From positions 1-44,889 of the IMG/VR virus record IMGVR_UViG_3300043436_000184: a DNA stretch of 44,889 nucleotides; one strand, 5' to 3'. A program made the position numbers and the translations under genes. The notes beneath the pieces are model-generated. The model had not been told where the DNA came from and did not search any database. It saw nothing but the letters and a program-made list of their open reading frames with translations. This DNA is from a virus. Taxonomy: Duplodnaviria > Caudoviricetes. Shown here piece by piece: positions 1 through 39,923 of this stretch; position 1 is the first letter of the stretch; each line of letters begins with the position of its first letter.

Positions 1-2
1 CG

Positions 3-545
3 GTACACAAAGCGGCAGAGGAATACATGCGGGATGGTACGCCCATCCCAGCTAAGTACAGCTACTTGCAAAAACAACTCGATCCGCTGATGAAGATTCA
101 GGGCACCCGGTATTGCGAGTATGAGATGGGGCTGACCAAGAGTCTGCAAGCCTGTAAGTTCAAAGCAGATGATGCGTGGTGGCGAGGGATTGCTGACCTG
201 ATTATTATTGACGAGGAGAAAGCCTTTCTGGTTGACTATAAAACCAGCAAGTCCAGCAAGTACGCAGACACCGCGCAGTTAGAGTTGCTGTCGTTGGCAA
301 TCTTCAAGCACTTTCCACAAGTCAAGAAGGTCAAAGCGGGATTACTTTTTGTGGTGGTTGAAGACTTTGTGAAGGTAGAATATACGAACGATGAAGGCAA
401 AGGTATGGCGTGGCTCAAGTGGTTAGAAGTCACCCACACATTGGAAACCTGCATGGCAAACGGGGTATGGAATGCAAAGCCAAACTTCACATGCAAAAAC
501 TTTTGCCCAGTGGTGGACTGTATCCATAATGGAAGGCAGCATTGA
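3..545 (+). CDS. PD-(D/E)xK (Cas4/RecB-like) exonuclease, 5'-truncated by the window edge
   Basis: Frame is open from nt 3 (VHKAAEEYM...). It has RGIADL...LVDYKT and Q-L-x-L motifs and a C-terminal Cys cluster (CKNFCPVVDC). Confidence 0.85.
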   Translation, partial: VHKAAEEYMRDGTPIPAKYSYLQKQLDPLMKIQGTRYCEYEMGLTKSLQACKFKADDAWWRGIADLIIIDEEKAFLVDYKTSKSSKYADTAQLELLSLAIFKHFPQVKKVKAGLLFVVVEDFVKVEYTNDEGKGMAWLKWLEVTHTLETCMANGVWNAKPNFTCKNFCPVVDCIHNGRQH

Positions 546-546
546 G

Positions 547-858
547 ATGGCTTATACTAAATCCCCGCGCCCGTACAAGCACGAGTACGAGATGCAAAAG
601 AAACGTAACGAGCACCCTGATAGGATGGAGCGCCAACGCGCCCGCCGTGCGGTAGATAAAACAGGTGCAGATAAGAACGGTAACGGCAAGGCTGATAAGC
701 GTGAAGGCAAAGACATTGCACACGTAAAGGCGTTGTCCAAAGGCGGTACAAATAAAGACGGCACTCGCATCCAGAGTGTGGCAAAGAATAGATCTTTCAA
801 ACGCAGTTCATCCGGTGCCTTGGTATCGGAAACAAGTAAGCGCGAGAGAAAAAAGTAA
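547..858 (+). CDS. Small basic HNH-like endonuclease-fold protein
   Basis: ATG at 547 directly follows the upstream stop. DIAHVKALSKGG...SVAKNRS resembles the HNH beta-beta-alpha motif without Zn-binding Cys. Confidence 0.6.
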   Translation: MAYTKSPRPYKHEYEMQKKRNEHPDRMERQRARRAVDKTGADKNGNGKADKREGKDIAHVKALSKGGTNKDGTRIQSVAKNRSFKRSSSGALVSETSKRERKK

Positions 859-873
859 AAGTTACGGGCAAAA

Positions 874-1154
874 GCGGATGGTGCTGGCAGGGGACTTTGG
901 TCAGTTCACCCCACACTGAAGCGAGTAGCCCACCAAAACGCATGACCATTGCTGGACGTGAAAACGTAAAGCGGACTAACCCAGAAGCGGAAAGCCCTGA
1001 GTTCTAGACACCTCAGTGGTAGCAAGACGGAGAAATAGCAGTGGTCAGCCGTGTTGGTGTCAGTGAATAGCTGGCAGTGGCATATTGCACACGGGTAATA
1101 GGGAATAGCTGTCACCAACAACCCTTTGGTTGGAATGAAAACTTCATTCCAGCC
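874..1154 (+). ncRNA. Putative multi-domain structured RNA (leader of the helicase gene or standalone ncRNA)
   Basis: Four consecutive closed helices: 879-888/928-935, 943-953/1037-1047, 1052-1063/1109-1120 and 1128-1139/1143-1154. Includes an internal ACGT-GAAA-ACGT GNRA hairpin and G-U pairs that favour the + strand. Confidence 0.6.
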
Positions 1155-1175
1155 TGTTATCCCTTGGAGAATCAC

Positions 1176-2732
1176 TTGCAAATAATAGAAGACAAAGCGC
1201 TCTTGCTAAAAGTACGGGAGCCGCAACGCATCACCGAGATAATCCCGAAGAGCAAAATGCTGGAGACCGGCGAGGTGCTGGTGAAGTGGGGGCTGGAAGA
1301 AGCACAGGTGCTGAAGAACCTGCGTATCAAGAACGTGCCGTCCCCCATCATGTCGCACTACAAGTGGCCGGGTCTATACCGTCCGTTCGATCACCAGAAA
1401 GAAACCGCATCATTCCTGACGTTGCACCGCCGTGCGTTCTGCTTCAACGAGCAAGGCACCGGGAAGACAGGCAGCGTCATCTGGGCGGCGGACTATCTCA
1501 TGTCGCTGGGTATTATCAAACGTGTGCTGATCCTGTGCCCCCTCTCCATCATGCAGTCCGCATGGCAGGACGATCTGTTTCGATTTGCGATGCACCGCAC
1601 AACGGCGCTTGCCCACAGCCACTCTCGGGATAAGCGGGTCAAAGCCGTACAGTCAGATGCTGAGTTTGTTATCTGTAACTTTGATGGGCTGGACATCATC
1701 AAGGATGCCGTTATCGATGAAGAGTTTGATCTCATCGTGGTGGACGAAGCCAACGCCTATAAAACCGTTTCCACAAAACGCTGGAAAGTTCTCAACTCGG
1801 TGGTTAAACCAAGCACATGGGTATGGATGTTGACAGGTACGCCCGCATCACAATCCCCCACAGACGCTTATGGTCTGGCAAAGGTTATCAATCCTACCGG
1901 GGTGCCGAAGTTCTTTGGGTCGTTCCGGGATATGGTGATGCAGAAGGTCACCCAGTTTAAATATGTCCCACGCCCTCAGTCAGAATCTATCGTGCACAAC
2001 GTCCTGCAACCTGCGATCCGGTTCACCAAAGAAGAGTGCCTTGACCTGCCTGAGATTACCTACACCACACGAGACATCCCACTTACGCCGCAGCAGTTGA
2101 AGTATTACGAGCACCTACGTAAGCACATGGTAGCGGTTGCAGCGGGAGAAGAGATCACGACGGTCAACGCAGCAGCAAGCCTCAACAAGTTGCTACAACT
2201 GTCTTGTGGTGCGGTGTACTCAGATACTGGAGAGACTGTTGCCTTCGATGCATCTAACCGCATGGCAGCACTGAAAGAAGTTATTGACGAGGCAAGTCAC
2301 AAGGTCATTGTGTTCGTGCCCTACAAACATAGCATCCAGATAATTAGCGAAGAGTTAAAGAAGTCTGGCTACACAGCAGACATCATCAGTGGTGAGGTGT
2401 CGGTAAATAAACGTACAGAAATCTTTAGCAAGTTTCAGACTGAGCCTGACCCCAAGGTATTAATTATTCAGCCGCAAGCAGCCTCACATGGTGTAACCTT
2501 AACTGCTGCGAACGTTGTGGTCTATTGGTCTCCTGTGATGTCCGTGGAGACTTACCTCCAGTGTAACGCCCGTCCGCACCGCGCAGGCCAACGCAATCCC
2601 GTCACTGTAATCCATCTACAAGGCTCACCTGTAGAGAAACGTATGTACGCCATGTTGGAGGCGAAGATTGATATTCATTCTAGAATGATCGATCTTTATA
2701 AAAATTTGCTGGAACCTGAAGAAAGTCCTTGA
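1176..2732 (+). CDS. SNF2-family (superfamily 2) helicase/ATPase
   Basis: Motifs NEQGTGKT, VVDEA, LTGTP, AASHGVTLTAA and QCNARPHRAGQ. Start reassigned to TTG 1176 behind GGAGA (1166-1170). Confidence 0.92.
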   Translation: MQIIEDKALLLKVREPQRITEIIPKSKMLETGEVLVKWGLEEAQVLKNLRIKNVPSPIMSHYKWPGLYRPFDHQKETASFLTLHRRAFCFNEQGTGKTGSVIWAADYLMSLGIIKRVLILCPLSIMQSAWQDDLFRFAMHRTTALAHSHSRDKRVKAVQSDAEFVICNFDGLDIIKDAVIDEEFDLIVVDEANAYKTVSTKRWKVLNSVVKPSTWVWMLTGTPASQSPTDAYGLAKVINPTGVPKFFGSFRDMVMQKVTQFKYVPRPQSESIVHNVLQPAIRFTKEECLDLPEITYTTRDIPLTPQQLKYYEHLRKHMVAVAAGEEITTVNAAASLNKLLQLSCGAVYSDTGETVAFDASNRMAALKEVIDEASHKVIVFVPYKHSIQIISEELKKSGYTADIISGEVSVNKRTEIFSKFQTEPDPKVLIIQPQAASHGVTLTAANVVVYWSPVMSVETYLQCNARPHRAGQRNPVTVIHLQGSPVEKRMYAMLEAKIDIHSRMIDLYKNLLEPEESP

Positions 2733-2757
2733 CAGTGTCAAATGATAGTTCTATTCT
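2729..2757 (+). promoter_or_regulatory. Sigma70-type promoter with a palindromic operator over the -35 element
   Basis: TTGACA(2729-2734)-17 nt-TATTCT(2752-2757). TTGACA-G-TGTCAA (2729-2741) is a perfect inverted repeat. Confidence 0.8.
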
Positions 2758-2785
2758 GTAGCTGTAGTAACCCTTGGAGAAAAAC

Positions 2786-3199
2786 ATGAGTGAAGTAATT
2801 GATGAACCAAAGACCATACCGACTGATAGATTGGTAAAGGCGTACGTCAAGATACGCGATGCCCGCAAAGAACTAGCAGACGAGTATGAAAAGCAAGACG
2901 GCGAACTCAAAGAATCGCTGGAAACAATTGAAGCGCAATTGCTGGAAGCCTGTAAGACAATCGGTGCCGACAGCATACGCACACCTTACGGCACAATAAG
3001 CCGCACTGTGAAGAAGCGTTACTGGACGAATGATTGGCATTCGTTCTATGCATTCTTGAAGGAGCATGAAGCATTGGAACTGTTGGAGAAGCGTGTAGCA
3101 CAAACCAACATGTCCACGTTCCTTGAAGAAAACCCTGACCTGCATCCGCCGGGTCTCAATGTTGACAGCCGTTACTCGGTTGTTGTTCGTCGTAAATAA
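2786..3199 (+). CDS. Phage replication-module protein with N-terminal coiled coil (loosely Gam/Gp157-like)
   Basis: GGAGA RBS and ATG at 2786. Coiled coil followed by SIRTPYGT...PPGLNV. Function is inferred from context only. Confidence 0.6.
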   Translation: MSEVIDEPKTIPTDRLVKAYVKIRDARKELADEYEKQDGELKESLETIEAQLLEACKTIGADSIRTPYGTISRTVKKRYWTNDWHSFYAFLKEHEALELLEKRVAQTNMSTFLEENPDLHPPGLNVDSRYSVVVRRK

Positions 3200-3210
3200 G
3201 GAGAGTACAA

Positions 3211-4104
3211 ATGAGCGAACTTACCCTGCTCAACAAAGGTCTGCCCGCGCACCTTAAAGCCGTGGAACTCGATGACACAACCAAAGCCCTGATGGGTGGC
3301 GGCGGTGGTGATAACAAACGTATCTCCATCGAAGGTGGCGTCTGGCGCATGATGGTCAACGGTAAAGAAGTTGCCCAGAATGAAGAACGTGCAATGAATG
3401 TAGTCATCGTTGCCGCAGCCCCCAAGGTATCGCGTATCTATTACGCAGGCACCTACAAGAAAGGCGTTGTAACCCCACCCGATTGCTGGTCGGCAGATGG
3501 TGATCTTCCAGATGCTAAAGCAAAGAACCCACAGTCTAAGAAGTGCGCAGACTGCCCACAGAACATCAAGGGTTCGGGTCAGAACGAGAGTCGTGCTTGC
3601 CGCTTCCAACAGCGTCTGGCTGTAGTCTTGGAGAACGATGTTGACGGTGACGTGTATCAGTTGACGCTGCCTGCCACTTCAATCTTTGGTGCTGGCGAAA
3701 ACAATAAGTGGCCTTTGCAGACCTACGCAAAGATGATTGCAAGCAAGGGCATTCCTATTACATCCGTAGTCACCGAGATGCGTTTTGATACGAATAGTTC
3801 CACACCAAAGCTGACCTTCAAGCCAGCACGGTTCTTGGAAACTGAGGAGTTCAATACTGCACTCGATCAGGGTAAGTCCCCTGACGCTACCAAAGCGATC
3901 ACCATGACAGTTGCGCAGGTTGATGGTGTGAAGGATGACGGCGAAGAGTTTGAAACTGCTGCTCCCGCAGCAAAGAAAGCAGCACCCGTTGCTGAACCGG
4001 AAGAAGCTGCCCCAGAACCGGTGAAGCGTTCCAGCAAAAAGGAAGAAGCACCCGCCCCCAAAAAGGACGTGAGCAAAATCCTTGAAGAGTGGGACGATGA
4101 GTAA
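3211..4104 (+). CDS. Putative ssDNA-binding/annealing protein
   Basis: TAAGGAG RBS, Cys motif (C..CADCP..C), Ala/Pro/Lys linker and acidic aromatic C-terminus (EEWDDE). Lies between helicase and primase. Confidence 0.6.
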   Translation: MSELTLLNKGLPAHLKAVELDDTTKALMGGGGGDNKRISIEGGVWRMMVNGKEVAQNEERAMNVVIVAAAPKVSRIYYAGTYKKGVVTPPDCWSADGDLPDAKAKNPQSKKCADCPQNIKGSGQNESRACRFQQRLAVVLENDVDGDVYQLTLPATSIFGAGENNKWPLQTYAKMIASKGIPITSVVTEMRFDTNSSTPKLTFKPARFLETEEFNTALDQGKSPDATKAITMTVAQVDGVKDDGEEFETAAPAAKKAAPVAEPEEAAPEPVKRSSKKEEAPAPKKDVSKILEEWDDE

Positions 4105-4336
4105 CGGATACTCATCCAAATTCGCGAGGATAGTCAATTCAGCGGACACCGGTAAGTTAGGTGTCCAGCTTGGCAACCTGTGTATTGATCGTGACATTCC
4201 GGCTGTAGATGTAGCAGAGCATTTCGGGGTAACTCGAGCCACTATCTACAATTGGTTTAAGGGAGAGACCAACGTCCCTCCTTCACATCAAGAAGCAGTT
4301 GCCAAGGTAGTGAAACAACTACTGAGTAAGACTTAG
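4097..4336 (+). CDS. Cro/XRE-like helix-turn-helix regulator
   Basis: AVDVAEHFGVTRATIYNWFKG HTH motif. ATG at 4097 overlaps the end of the upstream gene. Confidence 0.85.
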   Translation: MSNGYSSKFARIVNSADTGKLGVQLGNLCIDRDIPAVDVAEHFGVTRATIYNWFKGETNVPPSHQEAVAKVVKQLLSKT

Positions 4337-4345
4337 CGTAAAGGT

Positions 4346-4435
4346 TAAGGAGGCTAGGGAGCGCACCCGAAAAGGGTAGTTCGCCGTCACTATCCCTGCC
4401 TACCTTATTTTTAAAAGACGGCTGATGGGGCGGCT
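4346..4435 (+). promoter_or_regulatory. Structured leader/attenuator-like element upstream of the primase-helicase
   Basis: Stem 4346-4360/4393-4407 followed by T5, internal hairpin ACCC-GAAAA-GGGT, and GCCGTC (4383-4388) complementary to GACGGC (4417-4422). Confidence 0.55.
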
Positions 4436-7273
4436 ATGCTGACGAGGACAGACTTTCTGTCTTTGGTTCTTCCACCGACAGGTACTTACTGCGTGGTTGG
4501 GCTGAAGAAAGATACAAAACCAAAACAAATATTTGTCACCTCGGTTGAGGAGATTAATAACTATGCAGACGCGTTACTACACAAAGGCTACGATGCTTAC
4601 TTTGCATTGGCTTCTTTTGGTGATGACTCGGGGCGCACGAACGCTAATGCGTCACACCTAAACTCATTCTTCCTTGACCTCGATTGTGGGTTGGGGAAAC
4701 CATACGCAGATCAATCCGAAGGGGTTGCTGCACTTAAAGTATTCGTAAAGAAGGTAGGGCTACCCAAGCCAACCGCTATCGTTAATTCTGGACGAGGCGT
4801 TCACGCGTACTGGGTAGTTGAGCAGCCGGTGCCAAAGGATGAATGGCGTGGGTTGGCAGAAGGCTTCAAGGCGCTATGCAGCGCACACGGTCTCCATGCT
4901 GATCCGGCAGTCACCGCTGACACTGCGCGTATCCTGCGTATACCAGACACACTGAACTTCAAGAACCCGGACGATCCGCAGACAGTCAAGCTAATGATGG
5001 CAGGTGCCCGTGTGGGTATTGAGGCACTGCGTGAGAAGTTTGTAATTAATGAACTGCACATCCCCGGTGAGCGTCCGTTCCAGCGCACCATTGATCCGAC
5101 TACGCTGGCTCTGCTGGGCAACTATCAGTCGCGGTTTAAAACCATAATGATCAAGTCTGTGCAGGACGAGGGCTGTGCGCAGATCAAACACATTTACCAG
5201 AACCAAGATTCCGTAGAAGAGCCGCTGTGGCGGGCAGGCTTATCTATTGCACAGCACTGCGTAGACGGAGAGAAAGGCATCCATGTCCTATCCAACAAGC
5301 ACCCGGAATACAACGCTAACACGACAATTAAGAAGGCTGCGCAGACTAAGGGTCCGTACACTTGCGAAACGTTTAAGAAGCTCTCTCCGGCCCTTTGCGC
5401 CGATTGCACACAGCGCGTCACCTCACCAATTCAGATTGGGCGCGAGATCATTGAGCCTACTGAAGATGAGAAGGTCATTGAGTCGATTGAGCCGGTTACG
5501 AAAGAGATCCGCACATACACGATACCCAAGTTTCCGTTTCCGTTCTTTAGAGGAAATGTTGGCGGTATCTATCGCAAAGGCGATCCAGACATCAAAGATG
5601 ATAAAGATGAACTCATCTTCCCATACGACTTCTATGTAGTGAAACGTCTGTACGATCCAGAAGACGGCGAGTGCATCATGCTGCGCTTGCATCTACCCAA
5701 AGACGGTGTGCGGGATTTCATCATGCCGCTGCGAGATGTGCTGTCCAAAGATAAATTTATCGGCACGATTGCCGAACAGGGCATAACGGCTCTTGGTAAG
5801 AAGCAGGAGAAATTAATGATGTACACGACACGCTGGGTAGAAGAACTACAGGCTATGGGTAAGGCCGAGATTGCCCGCAAGCAATTTGGCTGGCTGTCAG
5901 ACGACAGCGGTTTCATCATTGGAGACCGGGAAATCCGTCCTGAGACAATTGAGTACAGCCCACCATCCGCAGCGACACTGCCGTTGGTGCCAGCGTTTGG
6001 GGTCAAGGGTGACTTCCATGAATGGAAAGATGTGATCAACCACTATCGGCATCCGGGCATGGAGCTTCGGGCGTTCGCCCTGTTCATGGGTTTTGGTGGG
6101 CCACTGATGAAGTTCGTTGCAGGCGGTGCACTGAATGGGTTCCTGCTTAATCTGGTCAGCCGTGAGGGTGGCACCGGTAAGTCTACGTTGCTCTCCGCTA
6201 TTAACAGCATCTACGGTAACCCCGATGCGCTGATGATGTCCTACAAGGATACGCACAACTTTAGGCTGCAACGCTTCGGCATCCTGCAAAACATCACGGC
6301 AACCATCGATGAGTTGACCAACATGAAGCCGGAGTTGATGTCCGATCTGGTGTACGACATTACGTCAGGTAAAGGCAAGGGCAGGATGTCTGCCAAGGCA
6401 AACGTAGAGCGCGTCAACACCACGACATGGAAACTCCCAGCAGTCTCTACCAGCAACAAGTTTATCCGTGACGCGCTTCTGTCCATCAAGTCGTTCCCCG
6501 AGCCGGAACTGCTGCGCATACTGGAGGGCAACCTTGGCACCGATACCTCGATGGACGCAATCCAAGCCAAGCGGCACTTCGGTAGATTGAACAGCAACTA
6601 CGGCCACGCCGCTACTGTATTTATGCAGCACGTGATGACCAACCTGCCAGCGACAGTAGACTTTATTAACCGGGTCAACGAGAAGGTAGACCGTGCTGCG
6701 GGTATCACAAGTAACGAGCGGTTCTGGTCGGCTGGGCTGGCTATGGACTTGGCAGGTGGCATCATTGCAGGACGGCTGGGACTGCACGACATCCCAATCA
6801 AGCCTGTGTTCGACATGGCGGTGCAGTTAGTGAAAGACACCCGGAAGTCCAACAAGGAGTCTATGTTTGATAGCGAGGACTTCCTCGGTGCCTTCTTGCA
6901 GCGCCACTTCCATGAGATTCTGGTGATCAACGGCACCAACGACAAGCGCACAGGGATTGAGAACTCACCCATCCGGGAGCCACGTGGACCACTGACCGTA
7001 CGCTATGAGCCAGATACCAAACTGCTGTTCGTGTCAGTGCGCCCCTACCGTGAGGAATGCAGCAAGTACTCCATGAGTTTTGACGGGTCGCTGGAGCCAT
7101 ACATCAAGGCAGGTGCTTACCAAGGCCAGAAGAAAAAACGCATGTTCGCAGGCACCGTTGCCAGCACCGCGCAAAATGTTTACGCGCTGGTGTTTGATGC
7201 ATCCAAGCTGGGCTTTTTTGACGAAGAGATACTACTGAATGCTCCGCCTCCTGAACCTCTCGGTCTGGATTGA
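4436..7273 (+). CDS. Primase-helicase: N-terminal AEP/RepB-like primase, C-terminal DUF927-type P-loop helicase
   Basis: FFLDLD and SGRGVHAYW primase motifs, Cys-rich GPYTC..C..C segment, Walker A EGGTGKST and Walker B TIDELT. Confidence 0.88.
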   Translation: MLTRTDFLSLVLPPTGTYCVVGLKKDTKPKQIFVTSVEEINNYADALLHKGYDAYFALASFGDDSGRTNANASHLNSFFLDLDCGLGKPYADQSEGVAALKVFVKKVGLPKPTAIVNSGRGVHAYWVVEQPVPKDEWRGLAEGFKALCSAHGLHADPAVTADTARILRIPDTLNFKNPDDPQTVKLMMAGARVGIEALREKFVINELHIPGERPFQRTIDPTTLALLGNYQSRFKTIMIKSVQDEGCAQIKHIYQNQDSVEEPLWRAGLSIAQHCVDGEKGIHVLSNKHPEYNANTTIKKAAQTKGPYTCETFKKLSPALCADCTQRVTSPIQIGREIIEPTEDEKVIESIEPVTKEIRTYTIPKFPFPFFRGNVGGIYRKGDPDIKDDKDELIFPYDFYVVKRLYDPEDGECIMLRLHLPKDGVRDFIMPLRDVLSKDKFIGTIAEQGITALGKKQEKLMMYTTRWVEELQAMGKAEIARKQFGWLSDDSGFIIGDREIRPETIEYSPPSAATLPLVPAFGVKGDFHEWKDVINHYRHPGMELRAFALFMGFGGPLMKFVAGGALNGFLLNLVSREGGTGKSTLLSAINSIYGNPDALMMSYKDTHNFRLQRFGILQNITATIDELTNMKPELMSDLVYDITSGKGKGRMSAKANVERVNTTTWKLPAVSTSNKFIRDALLSIKSFPEPELLRILEGNLGTDTSMDAIQAKRHFGRLNSNYGHAATVFMQHVMTNLPATVDFINRVNEKVDRAAGITSNERFWSAGLAMDLAGGIIAGRLGLHDIPIKPVFDMAVQLVKDTRKSNKESMFDSEDFLGAFLQRHFHEILVINGTNDKRTGIENSPIREPRGPLTVRYEPDTKLLFVSVRPYREECSKYSMSFDGSLEPYIKAGAYQGQKKKRMFAGTVASTAQNVYALVFDASKLGFFDEEILLNAPPPEPLGLD

Positions 7274-7439
7274 TTGGGGGAACTTTAAACCTGAGACATC
7301 GTTCTTCATCCCATGTCTGAACCGGGCAGAGGCGGAGGACTTTGTACGCAAGGAAGCCGAACGGCTACGGATGAAGATTGTCTGTAAACACGTTGTAGAG
7401 AAAGGACGCTACGGGTTGCGTGTCTGGCGTATTGCGTGA
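7239..7439 (+). CDS. Small hypothetical phage protein
   Basis: 66-aa ORF overlapping the primase end; last gene of the + arm. Confidence 0.6.
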   Translation: MLRLLNLSVWIDWGNFKPETSFFIPCLNRAEAEDFVRKEAERLRMKIVCKHVVEKGRYGLRVWRIA

Positions 7440-7445
7440 TAAGCT
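7416..7445 (+). promoter_or_regulatory. Sigma70-type promoter with extended -10 for a small RNA
   Basis: TTGCGT(7416-7421)-18 nt-TAAGCT(7440-7445), preceded by TG at 7437-7438. Confidence 0.6.
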
Positions 7446-7450
7446 ACGCA

Positions 7451-7521
7451 CACTCATATCTTTCTCCAAGGGAAGTTGAGAGTTCGCCCCCCGCTGGCAT
7501 CCGTGCTGCGGGGGGTTTTTT
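7451..7521 (+). ncRNA. Putative trans-acting antisense sRNA against the RBSs of early genes
   Basis: Lies between a promoter and a terminator. 7451-7472 is complementary to 2771-2792 (20/22) and 7462-7473 to 1160-1171 (12/12). Confidence 0.7.
7486..7521 (+). terminator. Rho-independent terminator at the convergence of the two arms
   Basis: CCCCCCGC...GCGGGGGG stem followed by T6. Confidence 0.85.
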
Positions 7522-10500
7522 ATTGCCCGTACTCTTCCATCAACTGCGCCCGCATCTTGCGATCCAGCGTCACTCCATCTATTGACTCACGCTCATTACG
7601 ACGGCGAGTCTGGTAAGACGAAGCTATGGTGTCTGGAGTGATGCGCTTGCCGGGGTTCTTTTCGTTAAAGGTACCGATCTGATCCCGGACTTCATCCACT
7701 CCATCCACATCGCCCGACATACGTGCAGCATCTAGTTTGTCCAGCAGGGCACCGCGACGCTCAAGGATGGTTTTCTCAGCAGTCTTCATGGCACCAGCAC
7801 GTGCTTGTGCTTCCGCAAGATCAGATGGGTTGAAACCAAACACTTGCATAAACGTGTTGTACGCACCGATGTTGTCAACGATAGGTGTGCCGTCTTTAGT
7901 CAGAGCACCTTCAGTACCGAGACGGAACGCCTTCATACCGTTACGTACAAACGATGGGACAAGTGCTTCCATACCACGCTCGATTTGCCCTTCGTTGATT
8001 AACTTCAATCCACGTTCTGCACTGCGGAAGGCACCATACGCAGGACCAGCAGCTTGCTCCAATGCATACAGGGTGGGGCCAACCTCGGACAGACGCTTCG
8101 GATCTTCACGCCACAACAAACCATTGAAGCCGGTACGTGAGGCAATGTCCACACCAAGCAACTGATTGATCGGACCCTTGTAGCCAATGTCACCGAAGGC
8201 TGCGCGAATCTCAGCGTCCATATCGAACGGCTCATCATCGTCACCCATCATCATCTCAGCCAGCAGTGACACTGCACCGTACATCGGCATACCCTGCAAA
8301 CCGGCGAATGCGTAGGCCATACCGGAAATACCCAGCAACTGCCTACGTGCAATCCGTTTTGTTTCAGGGTCTGCGCCACGGAAGGCTTCGTTGAACAATC
8401 TACTCAGCAGGTAAATCTGAGACTGTGCAAACCGTTTGAAGGTGAAGGCAACCTTACCAATACCTTGCTGGAAGAACCGTGGGCCAATCTCTGCCAGTGA
8501 GGCACCGTGCGCATCGTTTACAACCTTGAGCGCCTCGTTGATAGCTTCGTTTACATCCTTACCATTCTGACGTGCCAGATCAAAGGCAGCGATCAGTGTG
8601 ATTTCACGGTTGGCACGTTCGGAGTTTTGGAATATCCAACCAAGCCCGTGTTCAATCTTCGCCCGCTTGCCGGTGTAGTCTTCAACGGAAGTATTACGGG
8701 CTTCAGTAATCTCATACCCGGTTGATCTACGGATAGCAGCACGGGCTACGGCAACATCGTACAACTGCTTGTACTCACCCTTGGCGTTGGTACCGAAGGT
8801 ATGGTCAGGCAGGAACTCGCTGTTGTTATCCTTGCCGCCTTTGTAGTACATGCCTGTAGCGCGTTGCATCGCTGCCGCTGCCTTATCAAACCCGTACTTA
8901 CCACCCAGCATTGGGTACACCACGATAGGCAACTGAGTTAAGTTGACCACTGCCGACGAGACGTTACCGGCGATATACATCATGTAGCTGAAGTAGCTGG
9001 CCTTAGACACCAGACTACCGTTGACCGGATTGCGCAAGAACTCCAACTGCTGTTCAATATTACCCACCACATCACGGATTGCAGTAGTGGGTGTTTCAGT
9101 GGCCTCTTGCCGAATACCTGCAACGGAAGATTCTACGGGATCGGCGTACTCCAAATTACTAAGCTGTTGTGCCATCTTGCTGGCAACGTTTGCATAGGCT
9201 TGGAACACGTCTTCGTTAAAGCCAGCCACACCCTCACGTTTGCGGAACTGCTGACGCAGCGACTCGGCTGGGAACAACGACAGATATGCCTGATATACGT
9301 TATCAATGACCGCAGGGTCTACCTTGTTCTGCACCAACTCTGCAATTACGGAACCCATAAAGCCGGTAGGTGGGGCAGTGCGGAAAGAAATCTGGGACAG
9401 ACGGGCATGGGCTTTTAGTTCCGTACCTCCAGCCTTCAGTGCTTTATCCGCAGCAAGCGCACGTTCCCGTGGGCTATCAAATGCCATAGACACCCGCTCA
9501 CCTGTAGCATCTTTAAACGTCAGCCAGTAATCGCCTTGACGAGTCAGGGGCAAGTAAACCTTCAAGCGGCCAGACTCAAACATGGTGCGCATCTTAGACG
9601 CTGCACTGCCAGACAAGTTCTTGGTCAGGAGGTCCATAAACTCTTTGGCGCTATCGTCGTACTCTTTACGCATCCCGGCGTACACATCCTGCAACCCCTG
9701 CGGTAACTGCTTGAACTGCTTGGTCAGCGGATTGTTTGCCTGTGCTGGGTCGAGCACATCGATCTGATCCAACGTGGTCTTGTTGGCAATATCAAAGAAC
9801 GTTGGCAGCGAAGCCTTGTGCTGGTTGGCAATCTTGTACCACTTCTGGATGTTCTCGCTGACGTGCTGTCTACGGTTCATCAGGCTAGTGGCCCGGTTTT
9901 CAAGCGCAACGATCAACTTGTTTATAGATGGCAGTTCACCACCATAAACTTCCGCAATCTGCGGCATCGTCATGAAGCCCAGCGCCGCACTCAGTATCGA
10001 GTCAGGTATCTTGGAGAATGCGTTGAGTGCACCTTCCTTGATGTCGTTAGCAAACGGCGGCAGGTTATTAATATCCCCGGTAATACCACTAAATTGGTTC
10101 TGCGCTTGCTTGCGATACGAGATACGCTTGTCCGTTGGACTCCATGTGCCCTGATTGAACACAGACTTGATCTGACTGCTGTCGTAGACAGCGAGGTTCT
10201 TGCGACTACCCTCAAAAACGTAGAACCCGTCAAAGCCAGCCTCTTTGATCGCGGACTGCACCTGCGGCGATTCGATCAAACTCCACGCACCGGATTTGAT
10301 TACTGGAATTTCTTCGCTATAGAGATCTTTACCTGTACTAGTGTTTAGTAATTTTGCTACGTGATCTGGGTTTTCATAATCAAACGGGTTCTGTGTGCTA
10401 ACGTAGACTGGAATAATATTTTCATTAGTTTGAATATGTGGTTCCATGAACTTTCTAAGGTATGGGTCAATCCCATACCGGTTCATGTTGCCGTTAGTCA

Positions 10501-13500
10501 TTGCTGTCTGATAAGCAAACTTCGCGTCTTCTACAGAAATTACACCATTTTTCCGGGCAAGACGTAATGCGTCCTTGATGACCTTATCTTTTATGTTGTC
10601 CGGCAATTTTTGAAATTCTTCGCGGACTATGTAATCCATCGACATATCCGAAAAACGTGCAGCAAACTTTGGACTGTCAGTCAAGAAAATAGCTCCCGCT
10701 TGCTTGGGGCGGAACTCTTCTATGTCACGGGCGGTGCCGTGGTACATAACTTTAGGTGAGCCGTCTGGGTTGCGCACCACAGACTTACCGAACCATTTTG
10801 TAAACGCATCTGTGCCGACACGATATGAAATGTCTTTACCACGGAATGCACTGATGCCTTCTCGCGTTGGGCCTGCGGCTACTACAAATCGTTGTGCGTT
10901 TGCCAGCAGTTCACGGATTTCAGTATCCGTAACCTTACTCATGGGTACGCCAAGACGGCGCAGGAACTGACGGATAGCATTAAAGACACGCTGTATAGCG
11001 TTGTTATACACACCCATCTCGGCCATCTCGGCCAGCACTTCCTCAACTGCTTCGTGCTTGGGCAGACCCGCAGCCATCTTTATCTTTGCAGCATCGCGCA
11101 CCTTAACGTTGCCGTTATAGATGTCGTCCATCACCTTGCCGTAGGTGTTACCCAATATGGACTGCAAACCAAAGTGGCCTAATGCTTCGTGGGCAAGTGT
11201 CAGTTTTGCTTCAACGTCGTTGGGGATATTGTCCGCAATCAGATAAACCGTTTTGGTATTTGGATCGTACAAGCCCGGTGCGCTGAACGCATTGTCCCGC
11301 ACCATCTGCTGATACAGCTTCGGTGGGAGTTCCTGAATGTCCTGAATAACTTTAATAGCAGGCGCATTCTTCCAACGGGCAACGATGTTGTCTACGATCT
11401 TTTGCACCGCAGACTTAGGCATCCCCTCTTCGATTGGATCTTCTGGTGTACGGTACAACGCACGTTTGGTAGCCTCGTCGGTACCTTTGCTTTCGGCTGG
11501 TGTTTCTGTATCTTGTGCAGGTTGCTCTGTTACTGCGGGCAGTTCAGTAGGTTGCTCTGTTACTGCGGGCAGGTCAGTAGGTTGCGCCGCAAGTGATGGT
11601 TGTACTTCTGGTGCAACCGTAGACGACGCAGGGAGTGGCACCTCGGGGGCCGTAGGAGTAGCGGCAGTAGGTTGTTCAGCCAAAGCAAGTGGTTCACCAA
11701 CAGGGGCAGGGGTTTCTAGTGCAGTTGACTGTACCGGCGCTCCTGCATCAGGTTCTCCAGTAGTTGCTGGAGCAACATCCAATCCAGCGGGTCTAGGTGC
11801 TGGAGTTCCTCCGGGGGGTAAGGGTCCGGGCTGTCCAGCCACAGCAGGGCTTGGCTCAGTTGCTGCCACGACAGGTTCTGTAGGCTTGATGACATCGGTT
11901 GCCTCCGGGTATGCGGAAGGAAGAGTATCCAGAAATTTGCTGACTTCGGCAATAGCTTCAGCACTGCGGGTCGGTGCGTTGGCGTAGTCTGTTAATTCCG
12001 CACGTACCTGCTCTACCTGCACGGGGTCTTTCAGGTCTTTGTCTTTAGTAACCTGCTCGATCTTCTTTTCAGCGGGGGTTACTGTAGGCTCTTTGACAGG
12101 CTCAAGCACCCCACCACGTGGACCAAATAGCTCGCCCTGCTGCCCATAAATAGCAAACGCTTGTGTTGCAAGTGAATCTAATGCTGTCTTAGTATCTGCG
12201 GAGAGACGTGAATTACCTTTTGCCCGTTCCACAATTTGCATTACTGCATCGAGGTCTTGCAGGTCTTCTAAGTTCTTACCCAAAAGCTGTTTATACAAAC
12301 CAGATTGTTTTGGCAGGCCGGTGGCATCCAGTACATTTGGGTCAAGTACCGTAGGTGTTTGTTTTCCAGCGGCTTCTGTAGCGGCGGTAGCTTGAGTAGT
12401 TAGTGCATCGTACGCGTCTTGTAGTTCTTTATCTGTATATAGTACGGTGTTGCCAAGGGCTACTGGCCGTGCTTCCGCACCTCTCCGACGAGCTTCAATT
12501 TGCCCAGCAAGATATTCCCGCTGGTTTAGCAAGTCTTGAATCTCTTCCGGCGTTTTTACTGTAGTACCTAACGCGCTGGCTGCACCCATCTCCATACCGG
12601 GGAGAGTACCCTGCGTACGCTCAGAGATTGGCCGAGTCGGTTTATCTTCTTGGAATAGTCCAAGCTGACCATCTTCGGAAGGGGCTACACGCCCCGGTAG
12701 TTCAGGCAGTGCCTGTATCTGTTCTTGAATCTGGGCAAGTGCAGCGTTTGCGTCTTCTGCTTTTTTACGCAGGACATCGATCCGTGCAGGGTCAACAGCC
12801 ATCTGACCATTTGCCATCGCACCCATCTCAGCGTTAATCTGCTGAAGTACTCCACGAATCTGGCGGTCTTGATCTACAAGCGCACTACGCTGGTCGATCT
12901 GTGCTTGTTGGTCAATAGGTTGGCGCAGTGGGGAAAACTCAGGCCCCATTTCTGCTGCGGTAAACATCTCTCCCTGTGTGCCAGCAGGTGGACCTTCTGC
13001 GCCGGGTGGGGCTTGTTCCCCAGCACGTTCACGTAATCTCTCGCCAGCCGCACTGACTGTACCAAAACCACCACCAGCTACCGCACCACGGACGCTGGAC
13101 TCAACCATGCGATTGAATTCTTTACTGCCCCAGACACCCGCGTTCTCATCGACAAACTTTTCTGCTGCGATATTGATCGCTTCCTGCGCACCTTCTGTCA
13201 GACCTTCTTTTGCCGCAGTGGTAGGGACGGTTGCCAGCACCTTACGCAGCAGGCTTGGGTTCATGCCCGAGCGTTCAAGAATCTTTTCTGCAATAGTCAG
13301 CTTGAGCGGCTGTGTCATACCCTTCAGAACTTGTGCAGGCAACACTGCATCCAGCGCGGCGCTAACCGAACCAAACAACGCAGCGACACCCGGCTCAAGC
13401 TTGCCGGTTTCTTGGTACACACTCTGGAATACTTCAGGCGCATTTTGGGCGTACGAACCCAAATAGATACCAGTTGCTTGGCCTACAGCCTGACGCGCAG

Positions 13501-13975
13501 CAAGCTGCTCTGCGCCCAACGTAGCGGCACGAACACCGGCTTTTGCTGCAACCCCACCAACACCGCCTGAAGCAATAATGCCAAGAATATCAGGCGTGGT
13601 TTCACCGATGGTTTCCGCAGCGTACTTTAATGCGCTAGGAATATCTTTTACTTGTGTGTAAGACTCAAACTGTGCGGGGTTAGTTTCTTGGATACGTCGC
13701 TGCGTCTCAGCAGCTTCTCCCATCTGTCGTTCGGCGTACTCGTCAAACCCAAGTGCAGACCCCACCATAGCCGGGATGACATCACCAAACGTAGACCCCA
13801 TGCGGGTAAGGCCACGCTTCGCGCCCCGCATAAAAGTTTCCCCAATACCAAACTCAGGACCGGGGATTTCAAATTCGTACTTTTTTGACAGTTCTTGGAT
13901 GCGGGCATTAACCTGCTCTTGAGACATATTGTCCGCAAACTTTACCGGCCCGAGTTTAGGCAGATTAATGATCAT
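7520..13975 (-). CDS. Large polyvalent (probably virion-ejected) protein with zincin-like, ART-like and PLxRFG-like modules
   Basis: HEALGHFGL (11174-11191); FTKWFGKS...VMYHGT...IFLT...GFDG...SQIKS (~10112-10804); YLPLTRQGDYW (~9524-9557). Last gene of the virion operon. Confidence 0.8.
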   Translation of the reverse strand: MIINLPKLGPVKFADNMSQEQVNARIQELSKKYEFEIPGPEFGIGETFMRGAKRGLTRMGSTFGDVIPAMVGSALGFDEYAERQMGEAAETQRRIQETNPAQFESYTQVKDIPSALKYAAETIGETTPDILGIIASGGVGGVAAKAGVRAATLGAEQLAARQAVGQATGIYLGSYAQNAPEVFQSVYQETGKLEPGVAALFGSVSAALDAVLPAQVLKGMTQPLKLTIAEKILERSGMNPSLLRKVLATVPTTAAKEGLTEGAQEAINIAAEKFVDENAGVWGSKEFNRMVESSVRGAVAGGGFGTVSAAGERLRERAGEQAPPGAEGPPAGTQGEMFTAAEMGPEFSPLRQPIDQQAQIDQRSALVDQDRQIRGVLQQINAEMGAMANGQMAVDPARIDVLRKKAEDANAALAQIQEQIQALPELPGRVAPSEDGQLGLFQEDKPTRPISERTQGTLPGMEMGAASALGTTVKTPEEIQDLLNQREYLAGQIEARRRGAEARPVALGNTVLYTDKELQDAYDALTTQATAATEAAGKQTPTVLDPNVLDATGLPKQSGLYKQLLGKNLEDLQDLDAVMQIVERAKGNSRLSADTKTALDSLATQAFAIYGQQGELFGPRGGVLEPVKEPTVTPAEKKIEQVTKDKDLKDPVQVEQVRAELTDYANAPTRSAEAIAEVSKFLDTLPSAYPEATDVIKPTEPVVAATEPSPAVAGQPGPLPPGGTPAPRPAGLDVAPATTGEPDAGAPVQSTALETPAPVGEPLALAEQPTAATPTAPEVPLPASSTVAPEVQPSLAAQPTDLPAVTEQPTELPAVTEQPAQDTETPAESKGTDEATKRALYRTPEDPIEEGMPKSAVQKIVDNIVARWKNAPAIKVIQDIQELPPKLYQQMVRDNAFSAPGLYDPNTKTVYLIADNIPNDVEAKLTLAHEALGHFGLQSILGNTYGKVMDDIYNGNVKVRDAAKIKMAAGLPKHEAVEEVLAEMAEMGVYNNAIQRVFNAIRQFLRRLGVPMSKVTDTEIRELLANAQRFVVAAGPTREGISAFRGKDISYRVGTDAFTKWFGKSVVRNPDGSPKVMYHGTARDIEEFRPKQAGAIFLTDSPKFAARFSDMSMDYIVREEFQKLPDNIKDKVIKDALRLARKNGVISVEDAKFAYQTAMTNGNMNRYGIDPYLRKFMEPHIQTNENIIPVYVSTQNPFDYENPDHVAKLLNTSTGKDLYSEEIPVIKSGAWSLIESPQVQSAIKEAGFDGFYVFEGSRKNLAVYDSSQIKSVFNQGTWSPTDKRISYRKQAQNQFSGITGDINNLPPFANDIKEGALNAFSKIPDSILSAALGFMTMPQIAEVYGGELPSINKLIVALENRATSLMNRRQHVSENIQKWYKIANQHKASLPTFFDIANKTTLDQIDVLDPAQANNPLTKQFKQLPQGLQDVYAGMRKEYDDSAKEFMDLLTKNLSGSAASKMRTMFESGRLKVYLPLTRQGDYWLTFKDATGERVSMAFDSPRERALAADKALKAGGTELKAHARLSQISFRTAPPTGFMGSVIAELVQNKVDPAVIDNVYQAYLSLFPAESLRQQFRKREGVAGFNEDVFQAYANVASKMAQQLSNLEYADPVESSVAGIRQEATETPTTAIRDVVGNIEQQLEFLRNPVNGSLVSKASYFSYMMYIAGNVSSAVVNLTQLPIVVYPMLGGKYGFDKAAAAMQRATGMYYKGGKDNNSEFLPDHTFGTNAKGEYKQLYDVAVARAAIRRSTGYEITEARNTSVEDYTGKRAKIEHGLGWIFQNSERANREITLIAAFDLARQNGKDVNEAINEALKVVNDAHGASLAEIGPRFFQQGIGKVAFTFKRFAQSQIYLLSRLFNEAFRGADPETKRIARRQLLGISGMAYAFAGLQGMPMYGAVSLLAEMMMGDDDEPFDMDAEIRAAFGDIGYKGPINQLLGVDIASRTGFNGLLWREDPKRLSEVGPTLYALEQAAGPAYGAFRSAERGLKLINEGQIERGMEALVPSFVRNGMKAFRLGTEGALTKDGTPIVDNIGAYNTFMQVFGFNPSDLAEAQARAGAMKTAEKTILERRGALLDKLDAARMSGDVDGVDEVRDQIGTFNEKNPGKRITPDTIASSYQTRRRNERESIDGVTLDRKMRAQLMEEYGQ
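11519..11585. repeat. 30-bp tandem repeat (~2.2 copies) encoding QPT(D/E)LPAVTE
   Basis: AGGTTGCTCTGTTACTGCGGGCAG(T/G)TCAGT repeated within a Pro/Ala/Thr linker. Confidence 0.9.
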
Positions 13976-27541: not shown

Positions 27542-28546
27542 TTAAGTAGTCGGGATAGTGTTCCAACCCGCCTCTTCAGAACTATCTATTTCCCGCCATA
27601 CAGCCGGTGCGGTTGAGAAACTCGAAGACGACCCTAGGTTATCAAACGATCCCGAAGCAAACGCACCTTCTGCAAAAGCCCCGCCATTACTGGAAGCAGC
27701 AGTTACTACACCCGTTGGTATTGTGCCCCATTCCGAACCCCCGTTTGCGCCTATACTTTGCCACGTTACGCCCGAATTTGCAGTTATCGCAGTCCATTCT
27801 GCATCGTCGAACGTATCAATTACTTCCCACAGGAACCGAGCAAACGCTGCGTCAGAAGCCTCTACGCTCTCCAACACTTGCGCAATAAACGAAGCTGCTG
27901 CGCTTGTCTGATCCGCCCCGCTCGCTGTTTCTTCTACCGAGCACGGATATTCCGGGGTACTGGATATAGTGTCACTACCCGCCGCGCTTTCAGAGACAGA
28001 TACACCAAACTCTTGCGCTACCGATATTGCGTCACTACCCGTTGCACTTTCAGAAACCGAAACTACAAAACTCTGCGAACTTGATACCGTATCTGCGCCA
28101 GTAGCAGTTTCATCTACAGAAGTTGCGTAAAGAATGCCGCCAACAACCGTATCTGCGCCCGTTGCAGTCTCGCTTACGCTCGAACTAAACTCAGCTTGAG
28201 CAGCAACTTGATCCGAAGCTGTACACGATTCAGATACCAAACCACTTAACTCAAATCCAGCCGCAGTTGTGTCCGCACCTGTCGCGGTCTCGCTTATGCT
28301 TACTGCAAAATCTGCACTAACTGATACTTCTTCACTGCCGGTTGCAGCTTCACTTACGCTTACCGCAAAATCCGCACTGACTGATACCGCTTCACTACCT
28401 GTTGCAGCTTCGCTTACACTTACTGGAAAATCTACATTTGCTAGTACTTGGTCAGACGCAGTAGCTGTTTCTGCTACAGAGGTAACATAAATAAATCCCG
28501 GTGCTGACGCAAACGGGACTGTTGCAAATGGCGAAGCTGCAAACAC
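27542..28546 (-). CDS. Acidic Ser/Ala/Thr-rich repeat protein, tail-associated
   Basis: About 11 degenerate 20-aa repeats (F.VSVSE.ATG.D.V). Confidence 0.7.
   Translation of the reverse strand: MFAASPFATVPFASAPGFIYVTSVAETATASDQVLANVDFPVSVSEAATGSEAVSVSADFAVSVSEAATGSEEVSVSADFAVSISETATGADTTAAGFELSGLVSESCTASDQVAAQAEFSSSVSETATGADTVVGGILYATSVDETATGADTVSSSQSFVVSVSESATGSDAISVAQEFGVSVSESAAGSDTISSTPEYPCSVEETASGADQTSAAASFIAQVLESVEASDAAFARFLWEVIDTFDDAEWTAITANSGVTWQSIGANGGSEWGTIPTGVVTAASSNGGAFAEGAFASGSFDNLGSSSSFSTAPAVWREIDSSEEAGWNTIPTT
27860..28480. repeat. Degenerate 60-bp coding tandem repeat
   Basis: Successive 60-nt blocks align, e.g. 28321-28380 with 28381-28440. Confidence 0.8.
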
Positions 28547-39343: not shown

Positions 39344-39736
39344 TTATGCGCGGCGAATGCCACGTGGGTCTTCAACGACTGCTTCAACAGTATCGTCATT
39401 GATCATGCGAAACTCTTTGCCATGAATCTTTAGGCGGGTGCCACTATTAGGACGAGCCAAAATGAAATCCCCCGGCTTACACCACGGGCCACTTGGAAAA
39501 CGCTTCTCATCTTTGTAGCAGTCAGGGCCAAGAGCCACGACAAAAAATACCGTTGCAAGTACTTCTTCAAAGTGACGGGTTTGGTCTGCTTTAATCAGGC
39601 CGCTCTCGTATGCCTCTTCAATATCCGGCAGCGTCACGAGGATGTGATACCCCGATGGCTGTGGTAATTGTTTGGCTTTCTCTTCTGCTGTTTGTGGTAC
39701 TTCACCGCTTTCTGTAGCGATTAGTATTTCACTCAT
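39344..39736 (-). CDS. groES: GroES-like co-chaperonin
   Basis: P.GYHILV...ESGLI...VVALGP...CKPGDFIL...GT...GKEFRMINDDTVEAVV; ATG at 39736. Confidence 0.8.
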   Translation of the reverse strand: MSEILIATESGEVPQTAEEKAKQLPQPSGYHILVTLPDIEEAYESGLIKADQTRHFEEVLATVFFVVALGPDCYKDEKRFPSGPWCKPGDFILARPNSGTRLKIHGKEFRMINDDTVEAVVEDPRGIRRA

Positions 39737-39923
39737 CGTCGTGCCGCTCCATTTGGTCTGCAAGGTCTAAGATAAAGCCTTCTGCGATGGATAGACCCCG
39801 AATCTCCCCGCACATTGCGCGATACTCCGCGTAATCTTTTGCAGACGCCCCGCTCATTGCAGCAGCGAGTTGCGCCTGTTTATCGTTAATTTTGTCTTTA
39901 ACAATCGCCAGTGTTTTGTCCAC
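39729..39923 (-). CDS. Small helical hypothetical protein
   Basis: TAAGGAG RBS and GTG start; DYAEYRAMCGEIRGL. Confidence 0.7.
   Translation of the reverse strand: MDKTLAIVKDKINDKQAQLAAAMSGASAKDYAEYRAMCGEIRGLSIAEGFILDLADQMERHDDE

Follow-up and report, generated by a model that had tools for sequence, protein, structure and literature searches.

Gene arrangement around the predicted small RNA unit

The DNA analyzed here, referred to throughout as the window, is a linear virus record of 44,889 nucleotides that is 71% complete. Its early arm, on the plus strand, encodes an exonuclease fragment, an SNF2 helicase, a 137-aa protein, a 297-aa protein, an HTH protein and a DUF927 primase, and converges on a virion arm carried by the minus strand. 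The predicted small RNA (sRNA) unit lies where the two arms meet (Table 1). Its promoter has the geometry that an earlier inspection of the letters and open reading frames, hereafter the sequence-only reading, had assigned to it, namely TTGCGT and TAAGCT separated by 18 nt with a TG before the -10 hexamer. The 66-aa gene was absent from that reading; the -35 hexamer lies in the last codons of this gene, and its TGA stop provides the "extended TG". A consensus promoter scan of the window did not list the sRNA promoter, which is too weak, so that support for it comes from its conservation in relatives and not from its consensus score. Refolding agreed with the earlier description of a weak seed hairpin exposing CCAA and a strong terminator: positions 7451-7523 fold with -33.5 kcal/mol (z -4.6) with CCAA contained in a loop, and the first hairpin is weak when folded alone (z -1.3).

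Table 1. Positions in the window of the predicted sRNA unit, its putative targets and associated genes
Feature	Position	Strand	Remarks
Hairpin with A-rich loop, just upstream of second target	1131..1151	+	Seed-matching ribosome-binding site follows even with a gene inserted before the helicase
Second predicted target: Shine-Dalgarno of SNF2-type helicase, TTG start at 1176	1160..1171	+	Second of 44 starts, -12.4 kcal/mol
SNF2-family helicase gene	1176..2732	+	Pfam PF00176 and PF00271
Sigma70-type promoter TTGACA-17-TATTCT of the 137-aa gene operon	2729..2757	+	TTGACA kept here in most relatives
Main predicted target: extended Shine-Dalgarno and start of 137-aa gene	2771..2792	+	Best of 44 starts, -18.1 kcal/mol
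137-aa protein gene	2786..3199	+	Weak Mu Gam/Gp157-like match, 26.7 bits against a cut-off of 27; phrog_13900
DUF927 primase/helicase gene	4436..7273	+	Last large gene of the operon ending in the sRNA
66-aa gene hosting the sRNA promoter	7239..7439	+	Conserved; no Pfam family; missing in L332, L334 and L335, which keep the unit
Predicted -35 hexamer TTGCGT	7416..7421	+	Shares the Leu-Arg codons of the 66-aa gene
TG extension, from the 66-aa gene's stop codon, with putative -10 hexamer TAAGCT	7437..7445	+	
Predicted sRNA, about 70 nt	7451..7521	+	Composed of seed hairpin, short linker and terminator; 5' end +/-2 nt
Seed (anti-Shine-Dalgarno)	7461..7473	+	CCAA loop at 7466-7469; 12-bp helices with both window targets
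Intrinsic terminator	7486..7521	+	GC stem and U6; U-tract overlaps stop codon of convergent 2151-aa gene

The stop codon of the convergent 2151-aa virion protein (7520-7522) falls within the U-tract of the sRNA, and a U-tract on the minus side of the terminator hairpin was present in only 1 of the 81 dereplicated units described below. Because of this overlap, and because the hairpin has no U-tract on that side, late transcripts may cross the sRNA gene, and late transcription may thus yield RNA antisense to the predicted sRNA.

The 66-aa protein belongs to a family with the motif SxFxPC...YGLRxWR, a pattern matched by about 1,500 IMG/VR stretches. It gave a confident model of a small alpha/beta protein (pLDDT 90), with which a fold search returned no clear match, and it had no match among 50,697 phage records. 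A fold search with the 137-aa protein likewise gave no clear match, and the Atlas matches of the 137-aa and 297-aa proteins were hypothetical proteins only. In Rollin, a cultured distant relative, other genes follow the primase. Just upstream of the primase, whose start has no clear Shine-Dalgarno (SD) sequence, positions 4347-4421 resemble the int-alpA structured RNA (31.6 bits against a gathering score of 35.8) and fold with -24.8 kcal/mol. Elsewhere in the window we observed a GroES-like gene in the head module (39344-39763), ART-PolyVal and LPD39 domains in a large virion protein (7520-13975) and degenerate 30/60-nt repeats inside a 334-aa gene of the tail region (27909-28481).

Complementarity to two ribosome-binding sites in the window

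According to the sequence-only reading, the unit encodes an RNA that is complementary to the ribosome-binding sites (RBSs) of two early genes. We recovered both complementarities. Positions 7451-7472 match 2771-2792 at 20 of 22 nt, the next best site in the window having 6 mismatches, and positions 7462-7473 pair with 1160-1171 at 12 of 12. None of 300 shuffled 22-mers reached 20 of 22 anywhere in the window, and the best score, 19, was obtained once. When the 44 starts of the window, a few of which were placed approximately, were scored with opening costs included, the two named targets took the first and second ranks, and the third-best start reached only -5.5 kcal/mol. Pairing that extends to the start codon is special to the closest kin of the window, being found in 4 of the 67 helices assembled from relatives (see below).

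The hairpin at 1131-1151 is kept in many relatives with stems that vary, and could be a protein-binding or processing site. It lies in a partly structured, non-coding leader of about 315 nt before the helicase (860-1175); the corresponding exonuclease-to-helicase leader ranges from about 250 to 1,100 nt in relatives and contains inserted genes.

Conservation of the unit

In a large family of uncultured phages, the unit is kept downstream of the primase module, in 130 and 87 parsed loci of two sets. The first set, drawn from IMG/VR, comprised 137 loci (window included) with the 66-aa gene and enough downstream DNA; a promoter, a short unit and a terminator were present in 130 of these and not in the other 7. 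The 87 units of the later set were obtained from 196 loci, the remainder lacking the primase end (89), being short (2), failing the motif filter (15) or having no terminator (3). When the 15 filter failures were inspected, seven turned out to carry a unit, in three cases with the 66-aa gene missing; three had no unit, and five were truncated. Dereplication at 85% similarity reduced 119 units to 46 and the 87 to 35 new ones, giving 81 in total; L181 was excluded as a false unit.

Both promoter hexamers stand out in these 81 units. A TAnnnT hexamer at the right spacing was found in 71, against a background of 4.4%, and the -35 hexamer begins with TTG in 62, whereas TTG makes up 19% of the Leu codons in the primase and is found here in 0 of 8 lineages that have no unit, lineages that are not strictly independent of each other. 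The usual layout is a C/U-rich 5' tail, a hairpin, a short linker and a terminator, with a median length of 61 nt (51-113 nt) and terminator stems of -10 to -22 kcal/mol, the U-tract having been a parsing criterion. The 5' hairpin is more stable than shuffled sequences (median z -1.8), and within the 5' domain pairing is lower in the seed (0.63 unpaired) than in the remainder (0.53, p = 4e-4). RNAalifold, applied to a MAFFT alignment of 36 units, returned 3 terminator pairs and no covariation, because the stems differ in both length and sequence. Natural variants without the sRNA also occur (L101-L104, L178, L179, L181, L188, L251, L315, L316, L323 and L377); in these the 66-aa gene abuts the convergent gene, and no TTG is present at the -35 position.

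Co-variation of seed and ribosome-binding sites

Joint change of seed and target RBSs in related phages had been put forward by the sequence-only reading as a test of the pairing. The seed does co-vary with the RBS of the 137-aa gene, and this was replicated in a held-out set. Among the 81 units, 67 form a helix of -8 kcal/mol or better and 14 form none; the 67 helices involve 61 distinct sites, for example CCTTGGAGAA (the clade of the window), GGAGAGTGAA, GGAAGAGTGC, GGAGAAGAGT, GAAGGAGCTAAC, ACCAAGAGG, AGGAAAACGAA and GAGAGAGAC. The median helix is 10 bp long, and helices of at least 8 bp are found in 61 of the 81 units. For the RBS of the 137-aa gene, cognate partners had a helix energy of -12.7 kcal/mol and non-cognate partners one of -8.3 in the first set (n = 46, z -10.7); the corresponding values in the held-out set were -13.3 and -6.6 (n = 35, z -12.4).

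Related phages have seed and target in common, so a second comparison exchanged the partners between the members of independent sister pairs, taken from a primase tree. By the helix metric the cognate partner was better in 12 pairs, worse in 2 and tied in 9 of the first set (p = 0.0065), and better in 13, worse in 2 and tied in 2 of the held-out set (p = 0.004); in the combined set it was better in 22 and worse in 7. The full-duplex metric gave 15 better and 7 worse (p = 0.067) in the first set, 12 and 4 in the held-out set, and 26 and 12 combined. The RBS of the 137-aa gene ranked within the top 3 helices of its own locus in 20 of 46 cases.

Of six control starts, four (those of the exonuclease (ATG), HTH, primase and 66-aa genes) gave mostly no signal. 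The exonuclease control is probably an internal ATG, the homologue in complete relatives having 222 aa. For the primase start the sister-pair counts were 14 to 4 in the first set and 7 to 7 in the held-out set; modest global scores were obtained for the HTH start (z -2.6 to -2.7, duplex metric) and the 66-aa start (z -2.2, combined helix metric). The 297-aa start had a weak global signal (z -1.9 to -4.9), and its pair test was not significant. The helicase start was significant globally (z -4.3 to -9.6), but its sister pairs went from 12 to 3 in the first set to 4 to 5 in the held-out set and 13 to 10 in the combined set, so that the held-out and combined tests fail. When any start within 600 nt before the helicase was admitted, helices of -10 kcal/mol or better were found in 31 of 53 cognate cases against 26% of non-cognate ones, with pairs of 12 to 9. 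Judged by these comparisons, the 137-aa gene is a near-universal predicted target and the putative helicase site is limited to some clades.

Gene insertions near the predicted targets give a further view of their placement. The first gene behind the promoter keeps the matching RBS in L004, as does the 137-aa gene in L003; in L004, L046, L049, L051, L127 and L144 the matching site remains after the conserved hairpin upstream of the helicase. Two other tests were neutral. G:U pairs were not enriched over A:C mismatches (18 vs 43 in cognate pairings; 658 vs 1300 in non-cognate ones), and folding of the 5' domain gave the plus strand no advantage over the minus strand (40/40); these two tests thus do not separate RNA pairing from similarity at the DNA level.

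Seed matches among early genes of near-complete relatives

Ten relatives of 60-68 kb, 95-100% complete, were examined almost whole. With seeds fixed by hand from the pairing with the 137-aa gene, matches were found at 42 of 403 early starts and at 1 of 508 late starts. An unbiased test that took the best 7-mer of each RNA was positive in seven of the ten genomes, five of the seven being close kin. It identified 7-8 early starts in the five genomes of the clade of the window, 6 in G007 and 4 in G005; the late starts identified numbered 0-2, and among 56-73 other RNAs no more than 2 did equally well. No regulon signal was obtained by this test for G008, G009 and G010, and at 8 nt the clade of the window alone stood out. 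The early genes with seed matches include those for an AAA ATPase and a DUF3150 protein, and other leaders, as far as about 23 kb upstream, also contain RBSs that match. The early leaders also share longer AT-rich repeats, which can explain the likeness of the putative targets to each other but not an RNA that mirrors them.

These matches suggest that the target set is probably larger than two genes; the fact that two are visible in the window is probably due to the part of the early arm that is missing there. As to lifestyle, no tyrosine integrase was found in the ten near-complete relatives and no resolvase in five, and PolA is encoded in all five that were tested for it. Latency by integration, an extension of the sequence-only reading, therefore finds no support.

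Proposed mechanism and alternative explanations

Taken together, these data lead us to propose, with a probability of about 0.8, that positions 7416-7521 are the gene of a trans-acting anti-SD sRNA of about 70 nt that damps early translation. The sequence-only reading had one sRNA silencing two entry points of the replication module. Its trans-acting, anti-RBS part is strongly supported by conservation and co-variation; the restriction to two targets is not, the set probably being larger and the helicase site clade-limited. The predicted sRNA may have a role in early-to-late switching.

In the model that we favor, the host sigma70 polymerase would transcribe the predicted sRNA from injection onward, and the sRNA would accumulate with a delay, after early proteins are made; because the RNA and its targets both have host-type promoters, a delayed negative loop would result. 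The sRNA would nucleate on exposed C/U residues, located in the loop here and in the 5' tail in other clades, zip 8-12 bp over the SD and repress translation, possibly with host Hfq. Pairing of bacterial sRNAs with the SD is known to block 30S loading. The predicted outcome is that early and replication genes are shut off with a delay and according to RNA dose, while virion genes are spared.

The same RNA and the same pairing could serve another purpose, either exclusion, in which RNA from a resident genome would silence early genes of arriving kin with the same RBS "barcode", or maintenance of a carrier state that does not integrate. As an alternative for function it is compatible with the same molecular mechanism, and we consider it unlikely but not negligible. 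Self/non-self specificity would lead one to expect the fast, joint diversification of seed and RBS (61 site variants), and the host-type promoter requires no phage protein. RNA-based exclusion also has a precedent in STnc6030 of BTP1, as described in PMC12197685. However, drift of a co-adapted pair would explain the diversity too; in near-complete relatives neither a tyrosine integrase (ten examined) nor a resolvase (five examined) was detected, the five tested for it encode their own PolA, and the 8 genome hits were all MAG contigs of unrelated taxa.

That the element acts only in cis, the long replication mRNA's 3' end folding back on its own 5' RBS and no separate sRNA being made, is improbable. 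Fold-back inhibition of the hok type is the model for such an arrangement, and since the 2729 operon has its end at this same terminator, its mRNA must include the seed, and its first gene is the most consistent target. A separate promoter is nevertheless conserved right before the seed, and RBSs that match are also present far upstream, in other leaders.

About equally improbable, and by our estimate a shade behind, is a feature of the DNA itself, that is, a repeated leader cassette or an operator for a phage regulator with one copy inverted downstream of the sRNA promoter. The AT-rich repeats common to early leaders, the neutral wobble and strand-asymmetry tests and the HTH protein encoded in the operon would all be in keeping with it. 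Yet the site lacks palindromic symmetry and in every case includes the SD; its inverted copy occupies unpaired parts of a conserved hairpin between promoter and terminator, and the mirrored stretch of the leader repeat is as a rule confined to the 8-12 nt nearest the SD. The view that the site serves only a 30-aa minus-strand ORF (7365-7457), as its RBS and start, is largely refuted, since that ORF, although it has an SD and ATG in the window, is not conserved: the closest relatives, L003 and L004, have ACG at that codon, a minus-strand SD with ATG occurs in just 9 of 131 and 18 of 81 units, and the ORF has no PHROG match.

Comparison with known phage RNAs

A search of window positions 1-10000 against Rfam gave no match above threshold for the unit, and the covariance model RF01695 (C4/CI RNA) had no match up to E 5 over the same positions. 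The anti-hemB RNA (RF02837) was rejected as a candidate (20.9 bits, E 0.29, against a gathering score of 49.5). The titles and abstract openings of papers retrieved by literature searches held no description of this RNA; it may correspond to an unnamed motif in the partly searchable data of PMC10690425 or PMC5737381, the former reporting, in its account of mining IMG/VR for structured RNAs, 10,006 candidate viral RNAs.

The unit shares with trans-encoded sRNAs a promoter (by conservation), a terminator and an accessible seed that shows compensatory change at initiation regions. PreS/LPR1 of lambda, VpdS of VP882 and the prophage-encoded DicF likewise have their own promoter, a short seed and an intrinsic terminator, and pair imperfectly with multiple distant mRNAs, as described in PMC12197685 and 10.1101/2024.10.31.621285. 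Those sRNAs are encoded by temperate phages and, among their targets, host mRNAs are the best studied, whereas the seed described here is predicted to target, and co-varies with, early RBSs of the phage itself, in a group where no integrase was detected. A further likeness is to the C4 antisense RNA of P1/P7 and the CI RNA of P4, although their covariance model had no match here. C4 is a phage RNA that acts on phage mRNA through short, non-overlapping complementary sites; C4 and CI RNAs, which are cut from a longer transcript, control a single immunity operon in temperate elements. The C4 RNA family is listed in PMC2864571, where the original paper is cited. The cis-antisense RNAs OOP and aQ of lambda, sar of P22 and STnc6030 of BTP1 also repress phage genes post-transcriptionally, and sar is stated in PMC12197685 to interfere with translation initiation. 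These RNAs lie opposite a single target, in contrast to the unit described here, which is on the same strand as its predicted targets and 4.7 and 6.3 kb away from them. On sequence grounds, the predicted sRNA would work like the trans-encoded sRNAs and P1 C4 and is a member of neither the C4 nor the cis-antisense families.

A possible parallel in Cluster K mycobacteriophages

Proteins are usually held responsible for the shut-off of phage early genes, and the number of regulatory RNAs known to be encoded by phages is small (10.1101/2024.10.31.621285). If our reading is true, a self-targeting sRNA regulon in an abundant family with no integrase detected adds an RNA timer to phage development, and the 81 natural seed/target pairs form a ready set of compensatory mutations and possibly of orthogonal RBS/sRNA parts.

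The repeated extended SD invites comparison with the long-unexplained start-associated sequences (SAS) of Cluster K phages, described in PMC3203893 as a non-palindromic extended SD repeated before non-structural genes. The same text reports one inverted copy per K1 genome and leaves open whether the partner of SAS is an RNA or a protein; the passages of PMC12699233 on the subject still call its function unverified, and neither account, where it deals with SAS, describes a cognate RNA. Here, too, a repeated extended SD precedes non-structural and not virion starts, in 7 of 10 genomes (G008, G009 and G010 being the exceptions). Cluster K SAS differs visibly in sequence, as well as in host and phage group, and is characterized by a 13-bp consensus and its ESAS inverted repeats. 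We tentatively suggest, at somewhat less than even odds, that phages widely tag early genes with a private extended-SD "barcode" and carry one matching master-off sRNA, the two co-evolving as lock and key with possible kin discrimination, and that Cluster K SAS would be explained likewise. The sRNA reading makes the SAS question testable in a cultured phage.

The right 36 kb of the mycobacteriophage Anaya (JF704106) contain 16 direct SAS sites and 1 inverted one. The inverted site lies between gp96 and gp97 (L423:34848-34905), and folds into a hairpin (z -2.7) with the anti-SD in its 10-nt loop; 128 mycobacteriophage records contain this stretch, a number that close genome similarity alone could give. 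From its sequence, this hairpin is a candidate RNA partner for Cluster K SAS.
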